Below the pieces are notes generated by a model that saw only the letters and a list, made by a program, of their open reading frames with translations, was not told where the DNA came from and ran no database searches. This document shows positions 9,871 through 45,488 of a stretch of DNA of 64,000 nt, in pieces. How positions within the stretch are numbered: the first letter of the stretch is position 1; each line of letters opens with the position of its first letter. Source of the stretch: a virus; the IMG/VR virus record IMGVR_UViG_3300032236_001304, positions 1 to 64,000 of that record. The stretch is one strand, 5' to 3'. The position numbers and the translations under genes were made by a program.

Positions 9871-10281
9871 ATGGACATCAATAAGTTATTAAAAATTACA
9901 AATATGTACGCTAAAACTAATTGGAGAAAATATTTTGATGAAGGTGCCTCTCCGGCGGTTCATCAATATCTAACTGAAAATGGTGACAGATTATACCCTT
10001 GGATTCTAAAAATTATACAACAAGCAGTTGAAGATAATTTAGAAGAAGTGGCATTGATTAAGTTCACCGATTCTAAAATGTTTGCTACTATCGATAAGAG
10101 TGAGTATAAGGACCTCCTAAATAAAATGATGGAATACTTTATAGAAAAAGAGCAATACGAACAATGTGGAGCTATAAGGGATTTAATTGTATCTATCGAT
10201 AATCCACCTCAACCTAAACCTAAAAGGAAATATACAAAAAGAAAAAAAGTTACAGATGATTATACAAACACAAATATTTGA
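9871..10281 (+). CDS. protein with C-terminal UvrB/UvrC-like motif
   Basis: FIEKEQYEQCGAIRD resembles E.YE.AA..RD. Confidence 0.55.
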   Translation: MDINKLLKITNMYAKTNWRKYFDEGASPAVHQYLTENGDRLYPWILKIIQQAVEDNLEEVALIKFTDSKMFATIDKSEYKDLLNKMMEYFIEKEQYEQCGAIRDLIVSIDNPPQPKPKRKYTKRKKVTDDYTNTNI

Positions 10282-10918
10282 TAATATACTTTCTGTTGAA
10301 GAACAAGATATTTTATTAGAGTTTATGGAATCCGATTATAAAAATTGGACATTTTTACCATATATTTCTTTGGATGAAAAAGATGCTAAGATTGCAATTG
10401 ATGAAGGAATACTAAAGCAATTCCCAGCATATACATTTGATATTACAAAATCAAATTCATTAAAATATGAAAATATATTTAATATTTTGAAAAAAATAGA
10501 ATCAAATGTATGTAAAAATATAGGGGTTAAATTTCAACAAAATTATAGATATAAACTAAATTGTCAACCACCAATAGATAATTATACGATTGATGAATTA
10601 TATAAAAATATTCATTATGATAGACAAACTCAACATATGGTAATACTCTATTATGTTAACGACAGTGATGGCGATACTTTACTTTTTAAAAATAAAAGAG
10701 GACATGATGCACCTGCAAATAATAAAACAAAAAAAGAATGTCAGGATGGTATATTTGACAACGTAGAAATAATACAATCAATTACACCAAAGAAAGGTAG
10801 GGCAGTGATATTTGATGGAACATCATTGCATACGGCAGGTTGGTCTAATACGCAAAATAGATACGCGGTAAATCTAAATATAATATTAGAAAATAATAAA
10901 AAAACAAATTTAATATAA
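10256..10918 (+). CDS. 2OG-Fe(II) oxygenase
   Basis: HYD..LYYVNDSDGDT..FDGTSLH..R; probable start ATG10256 (MIIQTQIFDNILS). Confidence 0.8.
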   Translation: MIIQTQIFDNILSVEEQDILLEFMESDYKNWTFLPYISLDEKDAKIAIDEGILKQFPAYTFDITKSNSLKYENIFNILKKIESNVCKNIGVKFQQNYRYKLNCQPPIDNYTIDELYKNIHYDRQTQHMVILYYVNDSDGDTLLFKNKRGHDAPANNKTKKECQDGIFDNVEIIQSITPKKGRAVIFDGTSLHTAGWSNTQNRYAVNLNIILENNKKTNLI

Positions 10919-10922
10919 AATT

Positions 10923-11459
10923 ATGACAACATATATACCGAATCTTTTAACAAAAGAAGAATGTGAACATTTAGTAAAAGAATTTGACAATGAAAAAAAT
11001 AAATATCCAAACGGAGATGATACAAGTGACTTAACAGGTAATTCACTTGGATATTCAAGTAAAAATAATGAATTTAACAAATATTTAAATAAATTAAAAC
11101 CAAAAATATTGGAATTTTATCCTGAAAATACTGACTTGGCCAATGTCAACACATATGTTAGAGAGTATTTGAATAATTCAAAATTGGGTAGACATATAGA
11201 TAGAATGGATATTGGTGCAACGCTTTCATTATGTTTGGAATTTAATATAAAAAATGAATGGCCATTGTGTGCTGAAATAGAGGGAGAGGCAAAATGTTTT
11301 AATTTAAATGTTGGAGATGGATTATTAATGACAACCGCATATAAAACACCACATTGGAGAGATACAATGTTTTGTGATGAAAATGAAAGAGTAGTTCAAC
11401 TTTTTATACATTGGAAAGAAACCGAATATGTAACTAAAAAAATAAAAACAATACTATAA
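10923..11459 (+). CDS. 2OG-Fe(II) oxygenase
   Basis: REY..LGRHID..GDG..HWR..VQLFIHW. Confidence 0.8.
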   Translation: MTTYIPNLLTKEECEHLVKEFDNEKNKYPNGDDTSDLTGNSLGYSSKNNEFNKYLNKLKPKILEFYPENTDLANVNTYVREYLNNSKLGRHIDRMDIGATLSLCLEFNIKNEWPLCAEIEGEAKCFNLNVGDGLLMTTAYKTPHWRDTMFCDENERVVQLFIHWKETEYVTKKIKTIL

Positions 11460-11460
11460 A

Positions 11461-11994
11461 ATGGTAACAAAATATGAAAATGTATTATCGGATGAGTTAT
11501 ATATTGAAGTAATCGAATATGTTAATAATATTATAAAAAATAAAAAAACAAAACTTACATCTTCTAATTTAGAATGGGATGATAAGCTTAAAGGAAATAG
11601 TGAAGCAGTTTTAAGATATGAATTTGATAATAGTGATTCATTAATTTTTAAAAAAATAAAAAAAGAACTAGAAAATAAAATTCCATATTTTATACAAAGA
11701 ATGGTTTTACATTTGTGGCCTAATTTAAGTTATATAACTTGGCACGATGATAGTCAATCTACTGCCGCATTAACTTTATATTTGAATAAAAATTGGGATG
11801 ATAATTGGGGTGGTTATTTAATGTACAAAGAAGATAATGAAATAAAGGCAATTAAACCGGAAAAGAATTTAGCAGTTTTACAAGAAAATAAAGTTGGACA
11901 TTGTGTAACAACAATTAATATGGGAGCAGATACTAGGATATCATTACAATTTTTTTTAAAGCAAAATTTAAAAAAAATAAAAACATTACTTTAA
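11461..11994 (+). CDS. prolyl-4-hydroxylase-like 2OG-Fe(II) oxygenase
   Basis: WHDD..LYLNKNWDDNWGG..HCV..RISLQ. Confidence 0.85.
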   Translation: MVTKYENVLSDELYIEVIEYVNNIIKNKKTKLTSSNLEWDDKLKGNSEAVLRYEFDNSDSLIFKKIKKELENKIPYFIQRMVLHLWPNLSYITWHDDSQSTAALTLYLNKNWDDNWGGYLMYKEDNEIKAIKPEKNLAVLQENKVGHCVTTINMGADTRISLQFFLKQNLKKIKTLL

Positions 11995-12021
11995 TCTATT
12001 TAAATTAATAAAAAATATAAT

Positions 12022-12600
12022 ATGGCATTTACACATATAGAAATACCAAATTTTTTAACAAAAGAAGAATGTAATAAAATATTAGATTTTTCTTTAAATA
12101 ATTTAGAATTAAAACCAGGAGTAACTGGTCCAACTGGGGAATTATCAAAATATAGAAAATCAAGTATTGAATTATATCCGTATTATAATAAATTTCCATT
12201 TTTATTAGAAAAAATAAGTAAAGTAGTTGATGAATATATAAATGTAAAAGGACATGATTTAGAATATAGAAAAGAAAAATTTCAATTCACACAATATAAA
12301 GTAGGTGAATATTATAATTGGCATGGGGATAGAGAACCCGGTGGTAAAAATGATATTTTAATTTCAGGTCGTTATTGTACTATTGTTATACAATTAAATG
12401 ATGAATATAATGATGGTAATTTAGAATTGGAATTATTTAATGGAGAGCATGTAATAGTTGAAAAAGGAATAGGTAATATGGTTATATTTTTAGCTGAACT
12501 TAAACATAGAGTAGTTCCAGTAAGTTATGGTGAACGATATACCTTAGTAAATTGGATAGGTATTAAACCAAAAGAAAACTATAAAAAAACATTAATATAG
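12022..12600 (+). CDS. PKHD/P4H-type 2OG-Fe(II) oxygenase
   Basis: QFTQY..YNWHGD..QLND.Y.DG.L..HRVVPV..GERYTLVNW. Confidence 0.85.
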   Translation: MAFTHIEIPNFLTKEECNKILDFSLNNLELKPGVTGPTGELSKYRKSSIELYPYYNKFPFLLEKISKVVDEYINVKGHDLEYRKEKFQFTQYKVGEYYNWHGDREPGGKNDILISGRYCTIVIQLNDEYNDGNLELELFNGEHVIVEKGIGNMVIFLAELKHRVVPVSYGERYTLVNWIGIKPKENYKKTLI

Positions 12601-12656
12601 TTTAGGTAAAATTAAAAAGTAGATATTTATATTAAAATAATAAAAAGAATAATAAT

Positions 12657-14156
12657 ATGAGAACAGTATTAATAGGTTCGGATTTTATGTATGATTCCAA
12701 TGGTAATTTAAAATTATTGGAAATAAATACAAATATAACTTGGGAAGGTTTGATGAAAGTTGAAGAAACCGCTGATATATTTGATTTAACAGGTTTAGAT
12801 ACTTTTGTTAAAACTAATAATTTTAGTCAAATACACTATGTTGGTGATATTGTAGATTTAAGTAATTTATTAAAATCATATTGTGATGAAAATTCATTAT
12901 TATATTCTTTTTATCATGTAGGTGGAGATGCTTTAACCGTTCCATATATTGAAGATGCGGAAGACATATTAATAATAAGAAGTGCATATGATACAACTGC
13001 ATTAGTAGATGATACATATTGTGCTGATAAGATTAATTTTATGAATCTTATTAAAAATGAATCATTTGGTTCTCAATTTGCTGTAATTAATGATAATAAT
13101 ATTTTACAAAACAATATAACAGAAATTATTGATAATGGAATTCATCCAAATTTTATTTTAAAAGCAAGTAGCCCTCATTATGATGTTGAGGTATATCCAA
13201 AAGTATTTAAAGTAACAAACCAAACTGAATTAGATACTTTAATTGCAAATAATGTTACAAATGAGTATTTCTTAATGCCATTTTATCTTAATACAAATAA
13301 AACATATAATGGACACCTTGAAATTATAAGAAGCTATAATTTATTAGTTCCACCAAATTTAGAATCAATTCAAATTGGACAATATACTAAATTAAACGAA
13401 AATATATTATTAGATAATGTTACATATAATGAAACAACATTTGAAATTGATGCAATGTATAGAGATAGTTATGTATCAGTTCAAAAAATGTCAGCATTAC
13501 CAAAGGTATTAGATACCGATTTAATTGAAATGGCAGATGGTACATTTAAAACTCCAGCTGAATTAGTAGTAGGTGATTTATTAAAAACAATAGATATTCC
13601 AAATCCTAATAATGAAGATACAGCAAATCCTACTATGAATTATGGTATTACATATGATACATTTATTGGTGGTACAAATTATTCATCAAAACCATTATTA
13701 GCTAAAAAACAAATTAATTCATTTGTAGTAATAAATACTATTACATTTGATGATGATACTAACTGGTATGATGCTGAGTTTTCTTCGTATTTAATAAACA
13801 GAAATGATAATATACAATTTGAAACTTTGATGGAATTAAAATCTGGTGATATTATGTTATTGATAGATAGTTCATCTGAAACATTAAATATTGTTGAAAA
13901 AACAATTAAATCAACACATACAACAAAACAAATTTTTAGTGGTTGGGAATTAACTGTTGAAATTCCTCACTTATTTTTAACTAAAAATCCAGAATCCACG
14001 GTTAATGCTAATTCATATGTTCAGTATGTTGCTGTTCAACACAACGCAGCTTGTCCATATGGTGCATGTTCACCTTGTAGTAATCCATGTGCAAGTTGTC
14101 TTAAACCAAATCCATATTGTGCACCTCAAAATGTATGTGTTTCAACGCATTGTTAA
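12657..14156 (+). CDS. circularly permuted ATP-grasp-like domain + Hint domain + 36-aa Cys/Pro-rich C-terminal peptide
   Basis: GSDFMYDSNGNLKLLEINTN resembles the glutathione-synthetase motif RSDYM..LKQIEINT; Hint motifs LIEMADGTFK..ELVVGD, ELTVEIPHLF and VQHN; then AACPYGACSPCSNPCASCLKPNPYCAPQNVCVSTHC. Confidence 0.7.
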   Translation: MRTVLIGSDFMYDSNGNLKLLEINTNITWEGLMKVEETADIFDLTGLDTFVKTNNFSQIHYVGDIVDLSNLLKSYCDENSLLYSFYHVGGDALTVPYIEDAEDILIIRSAYDTTALVDDTYCADKINFMNLIKNESFGSQFAVINDNNILQNNITEIIDNGIHPNFILKASSPHYDVEVYPKVFKVTNQTELDTLIANNVTNEYFLMPFYLNTNKTYNGHLEIIRSYNLLVPPNLESIQIGQYTKLNENILLDNVTYNETTFEIDAMYRDSYVSVQKMSALPKVLDTDLIEMADGTFKTPAELVVGDLLKTIDIPNPNNEDTANPTMNYGITYDTFIGGTNYSSKPLLAKKQINSFVVINTITFDDDTNWYDAEFSSYLINRNDNIQFETLMELKSGDIMLLIDSSSETLNIVEKTIKSTHTTKQIFSGWELTVEIPHLFLTKNPESTVNANSYVQYVAVQHNAACPYGACSPCSNPCASCLKPNPYCAPQNVCVSTHC

Positions 14157-14188
14157 TATAATAAATTAATTTAATAAAAATACAAAAT

Positions 14189-14281
14189 ATGTCAAAAATA
14201 ATAACCGATTCAGATATCAATATAATGAATACAACATTAAACCAAGTGGGTGCATTAATTATTGCGGTTCATACTTCTTAA
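14189..14281 (+). CDS. small peptide (30 aa)
   Basis: MSKIITDSDINIMNTTLNQVGALIIAVHTS*, A-rich leader; not in the ORF track. Confidence 0.5.
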   Translation: MSKIITDSDINIMNTTLNQVGALIIAVHTS

Positions 14282-14307
14282 TAAAATAATACTAAAAATA
14301 AGTTATA

Positions 14308-14634
14308 ATGGATTTAGATTTTAAAGAAATTACCAGTGCGTGGTATAATAAATTTGTACATACAAACGAAATGAAAGAATTGGCAGATAATAGATTAAAT
14401 ATCTGCTTAGATTGTCCATCTAAATTGGAGGGTATTACAGGATTTCCATTTAGATTAAGATGTGGTGAATGTGGTTGTCCATTAAAAGCAAAAGTATATA
14501 CGGATAAAACATATTTAGATGAAGGGGGTTCTTGTCCATTAAACAAATGGAAAGATATCGAAATAGAACACTTTAAAAAATATAATAAGGCAGAATTCAT
14601 AAAACCGGACAAAAACAAAAAAACATTATTGTAA
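14308..14634 (+). CDS. Cys-rich Zn/Fe-binding protein
   Basis: RLNICLDC..CGECGCPL..K..CPLNKW. Confidence 0.7.
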   Translation: MDLDFKEITSAWYNKFVHTNEMKELADNRLNICLDCPSKLEGITGFPFRLRCGECGCPLKAKVYTDKTYLDEGGSCPLNKWKDIEIEHFKKYNKAEFIKPDKNKKTLL

Positions 14635-15321
14635 ATGTCATTATTAATTAATGATGAATTAATATGGGTTTCAACTCCCAAGTCTGCAAGTACTTCTATA
14701 TTTAATGCTTTTTTAAATTCTAAATTAAACTTAAAAAAAGTAAATGGCTGGGAGTGGAATCAAAATGCACATTTGAGTTTGAACATATTAAAAAATGAAT
14801 TTGGTGATAAAGAAAGTGTTTGCATTACAAGAGATTGGTTTCAAAAATGGATTAGTGCGTTAAATTATATTTGGGATGTTATTGAATATTCTACTCCATT
14901 TGAAACAATATGTAAATGGGAAGAATTAGATAATACTTTTATATATAAACTATTTGATGAATCTTTTTTAAATACATTACATTTTTGCAGTAATGAAGGT
15001 TTAATGGTTTGTTTTCGTAAAATATTATTAAATCCAAATAATTTTACAGATAAGGATTATGAACCTTGGTTTAGAATGATGGGGTTGTTAATTTCAGAAA
15101 AATATTACAAAAGTAATCAAAAATGCACTTACGAATTTGATATTAAAGATATTGATAAATTTATCAATTTTATTGAAAATAGATTTGGTGAAAAACTTGT
15201 ATTAGAAAATACAAATAAATCAACAAGAAGAGAAAATAAAATAATCTTAAATGATGAATTAAAACAATTTGTTTGGGATAATTTTGAAAAAAGATTTGAG
15301 AAAACAAATCATTTAATATAA
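14635..15321 (+). CDS. sulfotransferase family protein
   Basis: PAPS-binding loop STPKSASTS and ITRD..KWISA. Confidence 0.7.
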   Translation: MSLLINDELIWVSTPKSASTSIFNAFLNSKLNLKKVNGWEWNQNAHLSLNILKNEFGDKESVCITRDWFQKWISALNYIWDVIEYSTPFETICKWEELDNTFIYKLFDESFLNTLHFCSNEGLMVCFRKILLNPNNFTDKDYEPWFRMMGLLISEKYYKSNQKCTYEFDIKDIDKFINFIENRFGEKLVLENTNKSTRRENKIILNDELKQFVWDNFEKRFEKTNHLI

Positions 15322-16581
15322 ATGAAAAATACAAATATAATAATATATGTTCATCATTATTATTGTGATTCATTATTATATAAATTAATACATAATACTA
15401 GCGATAAACAAATTTATATAGATGATACTAAAATTGGATATGTAATTTGTAAATATAAAAATATTTCAATTAAATTAGTATTTAATCCAAATATACACGA
15501 TGCGAGTGATGGCTATCATTTAATTGATTTTTATACAACAAAAAAACAAAAATTTATAGATACAAAATACAATAATATTGAATTAGATTCTATAAACAAT
15601 TTAGATGATTCAATTTCGGTAGCAAATGTTATTTATAATAATATCAAAGATAAAAAAGATTGGATTGTACTTTTTTTAAGAACAGAAAAGTTATTTTATA
15701 AATACGAGAACAAATTAAATGATATAAATTTTCTTAAAATAGAAAATTCATTAGAACAATTAAAAAATCATAAAATAATATCGGATAATTGCTTTTTGAA
15801 TGATATCATTGAAGTTAGATATCCAAATTATTATTTTGCATTTACTAATACAATATATCAATGGAACGAAATGATTGGTATTAGATGGTATTATGAATTT
15901 AATCAAATTTATAATAATTTAAATTTTGAGTATAATATAGGGTATTCAGTAAGAAATTTAAAAGAACATAGAACAAAATTATTAATAGAATTATCAAAAC
16001 TAAAAATTAATAAATTATTTTTAACTAAAAGTGATACTGCACAATATGGTGAATACTTTAAAGAACTACCACTTTTAACAAATATAACTACAAATTCAAC
16101 AATAGGAAAAGAAGATTTTGATAATTTAAAATATATACAATTTTCATTTAATATTGGATTAGATTTATTTTTTAGAATTTTTTCAAAATCAAAAATGCAA
16201 ATATTAGATGAAAGTTGGGCATGGTCAACCGGAGATTTTACATCACAGTATTTATCAGAAAAAACAATTGGATTAATAATGGCAGGCATACCATTTATAT
16301 CAATACATCCATATCCATTAGAATTGTTAGAAAAAATTATAGGAATTAGAGAACATCCATTTAAAAAAGAATCAATTTATATAAAAGGAAATCCGGTTAA
16401 AACTGCCAATTTTATTAAAACTTTTATGGATGATTTTGAAAAAAATTATATATTGTGTAAAGATTGGTTAGATGAATGTAGAGAATTATTTTTAAATAAG
16501 ATAAACACAGAAAATTCTTTGTTAGATTTAATGCTTATTTCTTTTAAAAAGGAAAATAACGTAAGTATTAAATTATTATAA
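15322..16581 (+). CDS. 'TEK' family putative glycosyltransferase
   Basis: ILDES..YLSEKT..AGIPFI. Confidence 0.55.
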   Translation: MKNTNIIIYVHHYYCDSLLYKLIHNTSDKQIYIDDTKIGYVICKYKNISIKLVFNPNIHDASDGYHLIDFYTTKKQKFIDTKYNNIELDSINNLDDSISVANVIYNNIKDKKDWIVLFLRTEKLFYKYENKLNDINFLKIENSLEQLKNHKIISDNCFLNDIIEVRYPNYYFAFTNTIYQWNEMIGIRWYYEFNQIYNNLNFEYNIGYSVRNLKEHRTKLLIELSKLKINKLFLTKSDTAQYGEYFKELPLLTNITTNSTIGKEDFDNLKYIQFSFNIGLDLFFRIFSKSKMQILDESWAWSTGDFTSQYLSEKTIGLIMAGIPFISIHPYPLELLEKIIGIREHPFKKESIYIKGNPVKTANFIKTFMDDFEKNYILCKDWLDECRELFLNKINTENSLLDLMLISFKKENNVSIKLL

Positions 16582-19034: not shown

Positions 19035-19442
19035 ATGTATTTAGTAGATTACAACAAATTGATTGAAGATTGGTTCACAAATGATTACAGCCAAAATTGG
19101 AAAACATCAGGTACAAAATCTTACAAAGTATCAGCACAAAGATTAGCAATTGATATTACCGATGAAACATTACAAATCGGATTATTAGTTCCTGGACATT
19201 CCGCAGAAACATTAACATTAGATTATGACTCTGATAAAATTAGGGTTAAATCTAAACCAAACGAAACAACTCCTTCTAAAATTGAAAATGAATTAGTATT
19301 ATCAATAGATGAAACATTAAGCATTGGAAAAGATTGGGATGGTGCACAGGCGGAAGCGACAATTACAAACGGTGTTCTTTATATATCTATTCCAAAGTTT
19401 GAGGAAAGAAAGCCAAAAAAATTATCCATTAAAGTTGGATAG
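19035..19442 (+). CDS. small heat shock protein (Hsp20/alpha-crystallin)
   Basis: VPG..AEATITNGVLYISIPK..PKKLSIK. Confidence 0.8.
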   Translation: MYLVDYNKLIEDWFTNDYSQNWKTSGTKSYKVSAQRLAIDITDETLQIGLLVPGHSAETLTLDYDSDKIRVKSKPNETTPSKIENELVLSIDETLSIGKDWDGAQAEATITNGVLYISIPKFEERKPKKLSIKVG

Positions 19443-25197: not shown

Positions 25198-25918
25198 AAA
25201 GAAAAAAGACACCCGTTATTTTACGGAGCAAACAGAAGCAGCTATTATCGCATATAATAAATCCGATAATCAATTAGAAAGAAATAAATTATACGCTGAA
25301 CATATTCATTATTCATTTTATAAGTTAGCGGAGAACGTATTAAATACTTGGGGATTTACATACTTTGATGATGATAAAGAGGATATTAAACATGAAGTAA
25401 TATCATTCCTATTAGAAAAAATACATAAGTTTGAAGAGGGTAAGGGTAAAGCATTTAGTTATTTTACTATTGCAGCTCGTAACTATCTTATATTAAATAA
25501 TAATGCAAATTATAAAAGATTTAAAGCAACATCACAATTAAGTGTAATGCCAGATAGTTGGGATTTAGAAAATGATTTTAAACAAACGGCACACAATGAA
25601 GAATTTAAAACATTTAATGAACGAATGTTACAATATTGGGATTTAAATCTTAATAGAGAATTTACAAAGAAAAGAGATATTCAAATTGCAGATGCTGTTT
25701 TAGAATTATTTAGAAGAGCAGAGTATATTGAGTCATTTAATAAAAAATCGTTATACTTATTGGTGAGAGAAATGACAGGTTATAAAACACACTATATAAC
25801 TAAAGTTGTTTCTAAAATGAAAGAAACTCAAATGAAATTGTATTATCAATTTTTAGATGAGGGGGATATTACACAAGAATCTAAAGATCCATTTTGGAAA
25901 AGAGTAATTGTTAAATGA
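25190..25918 (+). CDS. phage sigma factor, T4 gp55-like (late transcription)
   Basis: RYFT.., KIHKF..KAFSYFTIAARN resembles the gp55 region-2 motif F(A/S)YFT. Confidence 0.65.
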   Translation: MGRKKKDTRYFTEQTEAAIIAYNKSDNQLERNKLYAEHIHYSFYKLAENVLNTWGFTYFDDDKEDIKHEVISFLLEKIHKFEEGKGKAFSYFTIAARNYLILNNNANYKRFKATSQLSVMPDSWDLENDFKQTAHNEEFKTFNERMLQYWDLNLNREFTKKRDIQIADAVLELFRRAEYIESFNKKSLYLLVREMTGYKTHYITKVVSKMKETQMKLYYQFLDEGDITQESKDPFWKRVIVK

Positions 25919-27609
25919 GAATATTAGGAATATCAGCTTTTTATCACGATTCAGCTGCAGCACTTATTGTTGATGGTAAAGTATTTTCAGCACAAGAAGA
26001 AGAAAGATTTACAGGTATAAAACACGACCAAAGATTTCCCATTAATTCTATTAAGTGGATTTTAAAACAAAATAAACTTAAGATTAATCAAATAGATAAG
26101 ATTGTTTGGTACGAAGATCCTAAAAAGAAATATGAAAGATTTAAGGAACAATACCATAAATATTTTCCTAAAACTTGGAGATTAACTAAAAAATTATTAA
26201 CTTGGAAATCTAATAATGATATTGATTCTATTATTAGAAATACTTTAGGTTATAAAGGTAATATAGAATATGTAGAACATCATCTTTCTCATTTAGCATA
26301 TTCATTTTATACATCACCATTTACCGATGCACATTTATTTTCCGTTGATGGAGTTGGTGAAAACGAAACAGCAGTATTAGGTTTAGGTTTAAAAGGTAAA
26401 TACATCCAACAATTAGAAAGAAACTTTTTCCCACATTCATTGGGTTTATTATACGCATCAGTTACGGCATTTTTAGGATTCAAACCTAATAGTGGTGAAT
26501 ACAAAGTAATGGGATTGGCAGCATGGGGAAATGATAAAGATGTTTATAGAGAACAATTTGAAAAGCTAGCAAAACTAAACGGAAACACATTAGAATTGGA
26601 TATGAAATATTTTTCATTCCATTATTCAGAAAGAGGTATGTTTACTTCTAAAATGGCTGAGTTATTTAATATTGCACCTAGAACACCCGAAAGTGAGATA
26701 GAGCCACAATATATGGACATTGCATTTTCCTTACAAGCGCATTACGAAAGATTATTCTTTGCAATGTTAAATAAATTTCATTCACACTACCCAATGGATA
26801 ATTTATGTTTAAGTGGTGGTTGTGCATATAATGGTTTAGCAAATGGTAAGATAACACTAAATACTCCTTATAAGAATGTTTATGTACCACCTGCTCCTTC
26901 TGATGCAGGTAGTGCTATTGGTTGTGCATTGTATGTTTGGAATAAAGATGTTACTAAAATCAATATGACAAACACAACACCCTATTTAGGACCACATTAT
27001 ACTCACGCTGATTATAGAAATGCAATTGAACAATTGGTCCCAAAGGATAAATGGGAAAACACTACTAATCCAATAACACTTACTAAAAAAGTTGCTAAAT
27101 TAATTAATGATGGTGCAATTATAGGTTGGTTCAAAGGTAATAGTGAATTTGGACAAAGAGCATTAGGACATCGTTCTATTTTAGCTAACCCAACTATTCC
27201 AGATATTAAACCTAAAGTAAATAGAGTTATCAAAAAAAGAGAAGGTTTCCGACCATTTGCACCTATGGTAATTGCAGATGAAGCTAATAACTACTTTGAA
27301 ATGTTAGGACAAGAAGTTCCTTATATGAATCAGGTATTTAAAGTTAAGGATGATTTTATTGCAGGTTTACCATCAATTACTCACGCCGATGGAACAGCAA
27401 GAGTTCAGACAGTAAAAAGAGAATTTAACACAGACATATATTTCTTACTTAAAGAATTTAAAAAATTAAGTGGATATCCTATTCTACTTAACACCTCATT
27501 TAATTTAAGAGGTCAAACAATGGTATTAGACCCTGTAACAGCTATTAAAACATTTTACGATTGTGAAATGGATTATTTGGTGTTGGGTAGTTATATCATT
27601 AGTAAGTAA
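25915..27609 (+). CDS. carbamoyltransferase (NodU/CmcH/TobZ family)
   Basis: HDSAAA, EEERF, HHLSH, DGVGE, EYKVMGLA, GGCAYN, EFGQRALGHRSIL, RPFAP, LNTSFN. Confidence 0.93.
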   Translation: MRILGISAFYHDSAAALIVDGKVFSAQEEERFTGIKHDQRFPINSIKWILKQNKLKINQIDKIVWYEDPKKKYERFKEQYHKYFPKTWRLTKKLLTWKSNNDIDSIIRNTLGYKGNIEYVEHHLSHLAYSFYTSPFTDAHLFSVDGVGENETAVLGLGLKGKYIQQLERNFFPHSLGLLYASVTAFLGFKPNSGEYKVMGLAAWGNDKDVYREQFEKLAKLNGNTLELDMKYFSFHYSERGMFTSKMAELFNIAPRTPESEIEPQYMDIAFSLQAHYERLFFAMLNKFHSHYPMDNLCLSGGCAYNGLANGKITLNTPYKNVYVPPAPSDAGSAIGCALYVWNKDVTKINMTNTTPYLGPHYTHADYRNAIEQLVPKDKWENTTNPITLTKKVAKLINDGAIIGWFKGNSEFGQRALGHRSILANPTIPDIKPKVNRVIKKREGFRPFAPMVIADEANNYFEMLGQEVPYMNQVFKVKDDFIAGLPSITHADGTARVQTVKREFNTDIYFLLKEFKKLSGYPILLNTSFNLRGQTMVLDPVTAIKTFYDCEMDYLVLGSYIISK

Positions 27610-44786: not shown

Positions 44787-45488
44787 ATGATTAAAATTTA
44801 TTATCATGTTTTTGCAAAAAATGGTGTTATTGATATTTTAAATGAACACTTTGAATTAATTGAAAAATATTTTAATTTTGAATACGAATTAAACATTGGA
44901 ATTTGTTACGATACTGAAAATAATTTACCAGAAGTTACTGAGTATTTAAATAATAAAAAATGTATAATAAGAAATACAGCGTCTGCAAAGGATTTGACTT
45001 CTGAATGGGTTACTTTAAATTTAATAGAGGGTGATAAACCTACATTTGCAGATGATGATATTATTTTATATTTACATACAAAAGGAATTACAAGAATTAA
45101 TGATGACTTGTATGATAATGTTTGTTCTTGGAGACAAATGTTAAATTATTTTTTATTAGAAAGGATTAATGATATATTAGTAATTTTTAATAATACAGAT
45201 TATAATATGTATTGTATTAGTAAACATAGTTATAATTCCGAATTAGAACCTGAACATTTTCATATGAATGGTAATTTTTGTGCATTAAAAGGTAAATATG
45301 TTAAAACCATAGATACCACATTAGGTAACAGATCTGCAAAAAATGATGTTGAAAATAGATTTTGGCAAATGGGGTTGGATAGAAATCTATATGAAGCATA
45401 TCCATTAAGAGGTAATATTGATTTTTATCATAGTTACTTTAAAAGAAAAGATTATGAAATAAAAGGAAAAACTATTATATTTATATAA
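44787..45488 (+). CDS. putative glycosyltransferase inserted in the late block
   Basis: IYYH..E..TL..LYLHTKG..WR..M..GNF. Confidence 0.5.
   Translation: MIKIYYHVFAKNGVIDILNEHFELIEKYFNFEYELNIGICYDTENNLPEVTEYLNNKKCIIRNTASAKDLTSEWVTLNLIEGDKPTFADDDIILYLHTKGITRINDDLYDNVCSWRQMLNYFLLERINDILVIFNNTDYNMYCISKHSYNSELEPEHFHMNGNFCALKGKYVKTIDTTLGNRSAKNDVENRFWQMGLDRNLYEAYPLRGNIDFYHSYFKRKDYEIKGKTIIFI

Follow-up and report, generated by a model that had tools for sequence, protein, structure and literature searches.

The window analysed here comprises 64,000 nucleotides (positions 1 to 64,000) of the IMG/VR virus record IMGVR_UViG_3300032236_001304 and makes up the opening 64 kb of a viral contig of 88,442 bp (G+C content 27.8%, CheckV completeness 41%) from an uncultured freshwater phage. 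Rough open reading frame (ORF) calls place 89 of the 92 ORFs of this contig on the + strand, and a baseplate-wedge match identifies the predicted phage as tailed and myovirus-like. Between positions 10256 and 16581 of this strand lies a cassette that encodes, in order, four oxygenase-type proteins, a protein with ATP-grasp-like and Hint domains and a Cys-rich peptide (the ATP-grasp/Hint protein), a 30-residue peptide, a CxxC protein, a sulfotransferase-like protein and a glycosyltransferase (GT)-like protein. A first-pass annotation had noticed that seven of the cassette proteins, of four different folds, share a short C-terminal tail, and it is this tail, referred to below as the tag, that is examined here.

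The first oxygenase gene (10256–10918, 220 residues from the ATG at 10256) gives a 2-oxoglutarate (2OG)-Fe(II) oxygenase match that is below the cut-off (PF13640, E 5e-5), and its product ends in ...NNKKTNLI, with KKTNLI encoded at 10898–10915. The next gene (10923–11459, 178 residues) specifies an oxygenase-like protein with an N-terminal motif like that of its neighbours and the C-terminus ...KKIKTIL (11436–11456). Two further 2OG-Fe(II) oxygenases of 177 residues (11461–11994; PF13640, E 3.6e-10) and 192 residues (12022–12600; PF13640, E 1.5e-10) end in ...KKIKTLL (11971–11991) and ...YKKTLI (12580–12597), and their genes are followed by gaps of 27 and 56 nt, respectively. The earlier description of all four as oxygenases is supported by Pfam for three, 10923–11459 being without a match.

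Downstream lie the untagged ATP-grasp/Hint protein (12657–14156, 499 residues), whose ATP-grasp-like domain, Hint domain and hypervariable Cys-rich peptide were recognized from a protein alignment (A2) and Foldseek, and, directly after it, the likewise untagged 30-residue peptide gene (14189–14281; tblastn and motif scan). The CxxC (zinc-ribbon-like) protein (14308–14634, 108 residues, no Pfam match) ends in ...KNKKTLL, of which NKKTLL is encoded at 14614–14631. The last two products of the cassette, also without Pfam matches, carry putative labels taken solely from ESM Atlas look-alikes: PF03567 is found on 13–56% of the members of the clusters resembling the sulfotransferase-like protein (14635–15321, 228 residues), and GT10 and GT-B clusters are the Atlas leads for the GT-like protein (15322–16581, 419 residues; scores 0.85–0.86, template modelling (TM) score 0.5–0.6). 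Their C-termini are ...EKTNHLI (15298–15318) and ...NVSIKLL, with SIKLL encoded at 16564–16578.

The eighth C-terminus noted in the first-pass annotation, ...KGKTIIFI (45462–45485), belongs to a 233-residue protein encoded at 44787–45488. This gene had been taken for a stand-alone insert; it does end as reported, and it is a displaced member of a cassette family, with 34–37% identity (blastp) to two proteins in related phages. One of these (L162:13978–14652, ending SFNKLI) is the last tagged ORF of its cassette and the other (L036:19433–20077, ending FSKSLI) is the last + strand ORF of the fetched locus. All eight quoted C-termini were found at the genes named, and the tail is indeed absent from the ATP-grasp/Hint protein, which ends CVSTHC, and from the flanking core genes. 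Among the seven cassette tails, EKTNHLI and SIKLL are weak variants that fail the strict pattern defined below.

Distribution of the tag in the contig and in related phages

End patterns in the contig were scored on ATG-start, longest, greedy, non-overlapping ORF calls of at least 40 residues. A strict pattern, K[TS][LIVFM][LIVFM]-COOH, is present in 4 of 8 cassette ORFs and in none of the 81 other + strand ORFs (Fisher p = 2.9e-5), and a loose pattern, [KR]x(0-2)-hydrophobic-hydrophobic-COOH, in 5 of 8 as against 4 of 81; the last two residues are both hydrophobic in 7 of 8 cassette ORFs and in 9 of 81 others. Inside the proteins the strict four-residue word is rare (20 of 27,757 internal positions, 7.2e-4), and a glycan island of the same contig, as AT-rich as the cassette, holds by eye about four loose matches among about 27 ORFs. 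On the strength of the internal word rate and of the equally AT-rich island, chance or composition was rejected as the cause of the tail.

Four ORFs of the glycan island past the end of the window (65249–66052, 67844–69400, 79748–80611 and 82459–83367) have loose tag-like tails (KQTLI, PKKLI, QRRII and RNKLI). The product of 82459–83367 begins MKGIIFSGCSF..., appears by eye to start like an SGNH hydrolase, and resembles tagged SGNH families of the relatives.

As proposed in the first-pass annotation, enrichment of the tail was assessed across this genome and its relatives. The records compared are fragments, 4–41% complete, from related phages. In loci fetched via the ATP-grasp/Hint protein, the CxxC protein and a downstream 202-residue gene, nearly all cassette ORFs are tagged, the ATP-grasp/Hint gene excepted, while the core genes flanking the cassettes are untagged. 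ORFs from the contig, 34 viral loci and two cultured-phage loci (750 in all) were clustered into families, those with at least three members were scored, and a family was counted as tagged when at least half of its members had the tail. Of 61 such families, 21 are tagged, with the tail on 190 of their 241 members, as against 6 of the 269 members of the remaining 40 families. The tail is thus not a general property of AT-rich genes, which had been named at the outset as a finding that would speak against it.

The families of the cassette genes themselves follow this pattern. The tail is found in 9 of 10 members of the family of 10256–10918 (cluster 13), in 20 of 26 of the CxxC family (cluster 1), in 3 of 3 of the family of the GT-like protein (cluster 50) and in 6 of 9 of the family of 10923–11459 (cluster 16), where the untagged members include a homologue from cyanophage S-MbCM6 that ends AWDRG. 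Among homologues of the oxygenase 12022–12600, 84 of 85 (39–100% identity) end in [KR][KQN][TS]-hydrophobic-hydrophobic, and most full-length representatives of the 228-residue sulfotransferase-like family, down to about 30% identity, end by eye in K/R...hydrophobic-hydrophobic. By their Pfam names, some of these families are radical SAM enzymes, Trp halogenases, GDSL/SGNH hydrolases and 2OG oxygenases. In the family-weighted consensus, which is poor in acidic residues, Gly and Pro, positions -4 to -1 are, in order, K (53%); T, S, K or N; L (65%); and I (66%).

Conservation of the tail at the peptide level

That selection acts on the protein had been argued in the first-pass annotation from the differing Leu/Ile codons and from the gaps after 11994 and 12600, all of which are as claimed; conservation at the DNA level, as a by-product of the initiation region of the next gene, was named there as the contrary case. 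Synonymous usage over the five final codons, compiled from 192 distinct tagged ORFs, is near that of the bulk of the same genes, with a slight excess of A-ending codons (Lys AAA 97% versus 89%, Thr ACA 63% versus 50%, Ile ATA 62% versus 48%). Ser in the tags is written with both TCN and AGY codons, and the stop codon is TAA in 129 ORFs, TGA in 44 and TAG in 19. The next ORF is within 5 nt in 120 of 185 tags and more than 25 nt away in 45. Among 21 genes of one orthologue family, the peptide KKTLL is spelt by 10 different nucleotide sequences, which vary at synonymous sites. In the family of oxygenase 12022–12600 the linker (-10 to -8) has an entropy of 2.2–2.8 bits and the tag (-5 to -2) only 0.19–0.35 bits, so that a variable linker precedes a near-invariant tag that is conserved as strongly as the catalytic core. 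Judged from these sequences, selection is on the tail peptide and not on the DNA.

A nucleic-acid by-product, whether of an A-rich initiation region, of a cassette junction or recombination word or of AT-rich composition, might draw on the slight A excess at third positions and on the many tags with the next ORF close by. It is nevertheless largely refuted, and has hardly any chance of being correct, because synonymous sites are free, two Ser codon boxes and three stops are in use, a quarter of the gaps (45/185) exceed 25 nt, a single tag can be written in 10 ways, the tag always lies in frame at the exact end, and equally AT-rich genes of the contig lack it. A DNA or RNA word was likewise rejected on the free synonymous variation, varied stops and gaps. 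Frameshifting on a slippery A-run (AAAAAAA) was considered and set aside, since substitutions such as R, N and S keep the motif without the run.

The tail looks, from sequence comparisons and a structural model, like a disordered, floppy add-on to otherwise complete enzymes. Homologues from cultured phages are 25–32% identical and the alignment ends before the tail, those of Melnitz-3 and Synechococcus phage S-MbCM6 stopping immediately past the last strand. In a family of about 400 residues, cassette copies have a ten-residue extension ending K[ST]LI that is missing from the window phage's own glycan-island paralogues. In 54 control loci, which contain distant oxygenases only, 23 of 785 ORFs match the loose pattern, as against 209 of 603 in tag-bearing loci. 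The AlphaFold2 model of oxygenase 12022–12600 has a core with a predicted local distance difference test (pLDDT) value of about 96, and residues 184–192 are coil, with values falling to about 50. The tail is not clearly visible in solved halogenase structures, and no signal peptide was seen by eye on the tagged enzymes. The tail thus has the general features of a short linear motif, namely 3–10 conserved residues in a disordered stretch with a variable flank, of convergent origin in unrelated proteins, here 21 families of different Pfam folds alongside tail-less outgroups and paralogues.

Common ancestry as the sole cause was considered and set aside: it would cover the oxygenases, but not the radical SAM, FAD halogenase, SGNH, sulfotransferase-like and CxxC families, and it leaves unexplained the paralogues that differ only in the extension.

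Linkage to the ATP-grasp/Hint gene and a proposed docking role

In alignment A2, which contains the window protein and 20 homologues, E22, N24, R108, K169 and R225 of the N-domain and H462-N463-x-x-C466 are invariant, as are D9, T25, D112 and D118 of the N-domain. Past the invariant His-Asn, both the sequence and the length of the peptide are hypervariable, but in all short forms it is Cys-rich. Foldseek relates the Hint part to inteins, bacterial intein-like (BIL) domains and Hedgehog, and the N-domain, weakly (TM by query 0.24–0.28), to YjfC and yeast glutathione synthase; with its invariant residues the N-domain looks like an active ligase. The stretch before Hint reads ...KMSAL/PKVLDTD in 12657–14156, with Pro at Hint position 1. 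None of 25 members of the ATP-grasp/Hint family is tagged.

The gene for this protein goes together with the tags. A profile built from 20 ATP-grasp/Hint proteins finds a full-length copy in 17 of 22 tag-bearing records and a contig-cut copy in one more, as against 0 of 23 controls; two Hint-only matches fall on a different protein of 561/578 residues. IMG/VR holds 295 ATP-grasp/Hint relatives, from which 80 loci were kept, 76 of them new and the set partly overlapping the earlier loci; contigs of 211–336 kb exist in this lineage. When loci are anchored on the ATP-grasp/Hint gene, it is accompanied by three or more tagged ORFs in 72 of 75. By gene rank from the ATP-grasp/Hint gene, 80% of the ORFs are tagged at +1, 84% at +2, about 50–70% from +3 to +8 and 0/35 at +12, and 0–23% are tagged upstream of it. 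No homologue of the protein was found among 50,697 GenBank phage records; the pathway is abundant yet wholly uncultured.

Tag dialects, that is cassette-specific variants of the tag, were sought over 49 non-redundant loci with 352 tags in 58 families and were not found. The last residue is the same in 554 of 1,234 pairs drawn from different families within a cassette, with a null expectation of 551 ± 15, and the observed and null values at the other positions are 675 and 693 (-2), 273 and 286 (-3) and 500 and 505 (-4). With same-residue pairs at the null level, the idea that dialects might betray co-evolution with the ATP-grasp/Hint protein was discarded. Since there are no dialects over these loci, the pocket of any reader must be constant; a single invariant reader is plausible, given this constancy together with the many invariant residues of the N-domain.

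The tag looks like an undescribed docking label. We propose, with a probability of roughly 70%, that the tail serves as a short recognition motif at the C-terminus, marking tailoring-type enzymes as members of an ATP-grasp/Hint/Cys-peptide pathway. Read from -4 to -1, the motif would be K, then T/S (or K/N), then L, then I/L bearing a free carboxylate, all at the end of a flexible linker. It would have been acquired by many unrelated families of tailoring-type enzymes within a single lineage of large aquatic phages that are uncultured and myovirus-like. Each tagged enzyme would dock by its tail onto a single invariant site of a common partner, for which the folded ATP-grasp/Hint part of the precursor is the best candidate, and would thereby reach the Cys-rich peptide ahead of its release by the Hint domain. 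The first-pass annotation had likewise suggested a docking or address tag; what stands of this is that the tail marks tailoring-type enzymes of unrelated folds that are tied to the ATP-grasp/Hint gene, the reader remaining putative. We infer both its identity and that the tail is bound at all, and within the general reading we assign the role of reader to the ATP-grasp/Hint protein tentatively, at somewhat less than even odds. More tentative still is the full scheme, a possible one in which a self-cleaving ATP-grasp/Hint hub accepts the four-to-five-residue plug of its enzymes and the peptide needs no leader for each of them. Such a tool-belt or 'reverse leader' logic would place the address on the enzymes rather than on the substrate. 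If true, it would account for how rapidly the content of cassettes is shuffled from one phage to another and for the hypervariable Cys peptides, because any family that acquires the plug would be recruited.

Several observations weigh against this proposal. One record (G002; 63.6 kb, 33% complete) contains 60 ORFs, one of them for a perfectly tagged oxygenase, and lacks an ATP-grasp/Hint gene, its Hint-only match being to the different protein of 561 residues, and a 6.2-kb contig (L025) carries another lone tagged oxygenase; both are compatible with a reader other than the ATP-grasp/Hint protein. Co-occurrence is not independent evidence, because all of the records are fragments from related phages. 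The absence of dialects would fit a conserved host reader equally well, and the N-domain, if it is an active ligase as it appears, may be engaged with the peptide instead of the tails. 

The 30-residue peptide, which the first-pass annotation had proposed to model together with the tails, is unlikely to be a universal one, because its gene is found in only 51 of 96 loci (motif scan). Where present, the gene has a constant position, being in the same place as 14189–14281 in L001/2, L003, L005, L008, L011, L012 and L035 (tblastn), and is strongly conserved, with the approximate consensus M-A-x-I-I-T-N-T-E-I-N-x-L-N-T-T...L-I-V-x-A-N-S. Fused (Rosetta-stone) forms of the oxygenases were not found among longer proteins, which is weak evidence.

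If the tail is a docking plug, four or five residues would act as a portable address by which arbitrary enzymes are coupled to a single platform for making peptides. Pathways for ribosomal peptides would then have a new organising principle, engineers would gain a simple means of recruiting enzymes, and the motif would serve as a sequence signature with which all members of the pathway could be found in metagenomes.

Two long ATP-grasp/Hint forms of 638–650 residues (L020:3178–5091 and L024:10362–12311) have a second Hint-like domain directly after the Cys-rich peptide, starting C-F-V-[SA]-G-T and ending [TV]-H-N. The resulting order, Hint(HN)-peptide-(C)Hint, is the topology of split-intein circular ligation, and by analogy these forms could yield a thioester or cyclic peptide. 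Two further loci (L147 and L163) are parts of one 211-kb viral contig that carries a pair of ATP-grasp/Hint genes, each accompanied by a separate set of tagged genes; the two-gene set ends KTLF twice (n = 2, which carries no weight) and the ten-gene set ends in I, L or V. A search of 185,579 species genomes with the tagged oxygenase family gave a sole match, on L091 (VHCC01000116.1, 2,467 bp) of a Candidatus Pelagibacterales metagenome-assembled genome, which could be a hint of the host or a binning artefact and is too little for a host call.

Comparison with known signals and alternative explanations

Class I PDZ ligands share with the tag a free carboxylate and a hydrophobic last residue, and the first-pass annotation had pointed out that four copies fit the pattern [ST]-x-hydrophobic-COOH. 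Four of the seven cassette tails and 110 of the 192 distinct tags do fit; in the other 82 the S/T position is taken by K, N, R or some other residue, and the penultimate residue, which is free in PDZ ligands, is a conserved Leu in the phage tags. A phage-encoded PDZ, S41 or ClpP reader was rejected, as none was found in the phage fragments searched: PF13180 is absent from 2 records and PF17820 and PF00595 from 21 tag-bearing records (22 different records for the PDZ models), and S41 (PF03572) and ClpP genes were not found in the phage fragment G000. Bacterial PDZ proteases (Tsp/Prc, DegS) are periplasmic, whereas the tagged enzymes, as noted, show by eye no signal peptide.

Client tags that are read by one receptor, such as peroxisomal targeting signal 1 (PTS1) with Pex5, EEVD with TPR domains and the sliding-clamp motifs of tool-belt systems, are comparable in being very short and placed, after a variable linker, at or near the flexible free end of unrelated enzymes, which they could in principle suffice to direct to a single partner. 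The phage tag differs from them in sequence and in belonging to a phage operon in the bacterial cytoplasm, and with its reader putative we do not claim it as a member of any of these classes. PTS1 ([SAC]-[KRH]-[LM]-COOH) matches none of the 192 tags, and the dilysine signals KKxx/KxKxx (Lys at -3 plus -4 or -5) match 13, the conserved Lys being that at -4. Enzymes for RiPPs, peptides made on the ribosome and modified after translation, use recognition of a leader peptide, or the RiPP recognition element (RRE), and borosins are enzyme-fused precursors. As in these systems, several tailoring enzymes would find one ribosomal peptide on a precursor whose large non-core part is later removed, but with the polarity reversed: the short motif is on the phage enzymes and the 'leader' would be a folded ligase/Hint protein of 460 residues. 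The RRE family is not among the listed Pfam matches of 18 tagged proteins (8 from the window, 10 from relatives), in which it was not searched for by name. The open-access PMC and bioRxiv literature, supplements aside, yielded no description of the tag.

The main rival to docking is a C-terminal degron, through which a host AAA+ protease (ClpXP with a MuA-type signal, FtsH or Lon) would remove or unfold the enzymes on schedule. If so, this would be a new C-terminal signal that phages use for a host protease. As in the ClpX signal at the C-terminus of MuA, listed as RRKKAI in Table 1 of a review (PMC8138137), basic residues precede two non-polar ones at the free, disordered end of a phage protein, with K/R at -4 or -5 in 170 of 192 tags, and both the lack of dialects and the lone tagged oxygenase of G002 suit a conserved host reader. 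Against this, the exact MuA spacing ([KR][KR]x-hydrophobic) is seen in only 14 of 192 tags, MuA has neither T/S at -3 nor Leu at -2, and an ssrA-like end ([LIV]-A-A-COOH) is seen in none. Unlike the MuA signal, moreover, the phage tag is common to at least about 20 enzyme families of one operon. It is limited to the enzymes of that operon and their displaced relatives, while other accessory and early-looking genes of the contig are among the 81 ORFs without a strict match and similar arrays without an ATP-grasp/Hint gene are untagged. We also know of no reason why exactly these enzymes should be unstable, and on balance we regard a degron as unlikely.

A considerably smaller probability attaches to the tail being a substrate, the terminal carboxylate of which the ATP-grasp domain would activate so that a residue or amine can be joined to it. 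Ligases that act in this way on protein C-termini include RimK and tubulin tyrosine ligase, and glutathione synthase joins the C-terminal carboxylate of a peptide to an amine. All tags have only one chemical group in common, a free alpha-carboxylate whose distance from K and T/S is fixed, and the nearest folds of the N-domain are those of YjfC and glutathione synthase, with the invariant charged residues kept. The fold match is weak, however, the protein's own Cys peptide would be a more obvious carboxylate in cis, and there is no apparent benefit in modifying a dozen enzymes. Very improbable, on a par with the nucleic-acid by-product dealt with above, is docking of the tail in the beta4/beta8 groove of the phage's small heat-shock protein (Hsp20) as an oligomeric platform. 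The Hsp20 gene (19035–19442; PF00011, E 4e-8) is 2.5 kb downstream of the cassette, its product itself ends ...SIKVG, and an Hsp20 gene is present in 12 of 22 tag-bearing records as against 2 of 23 controls. The grooves of small heat-shock proteins bind short I-x-I/V peptides, but this motif is found in only 2 of 192 tags, because the hydrophobic pair of the tag is adjacent; in addition, a 104-kb record (G001) has a full cassette and no Hsp20 match, and hsp20 is common in untagged T4-like cyanophages.

The closest described gene arrays are found in cyanophages. A tandem array of dioxygenases and a Trp halogenase is present in Synechococcus phage Syn9 (Iyer et al. 2010, PMC2938197), and this array and the clusters in PMC7824862 resemble the cassette in containing distantly related phage 2OG oxygenases together with halogenases for which tailoring of a peptide or metabolite is predicted. 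The Syn9 array differs in that the stretch read lacks an ATP-grasp/Hint gene and that none of its 17 proteins is tagged; a shared C-terminal motif is not mentioned in the passages of PMC2938197 and PMC7824862 that describe these clusters. The window also encodes a Nol-like carbamoyltransferase (25915–27609; phrog_1601, E 7e-124), homologues of which, of about 555 residues, lie just upstream of the ATP-grasp/Hint gene in several relatives (e.g. L115, L163 and L172), and carbamoyltransferases are part of the cyanophage halogenase/2OGFeDO cluster as well (Iyer et al. 2021, PMC7824862).

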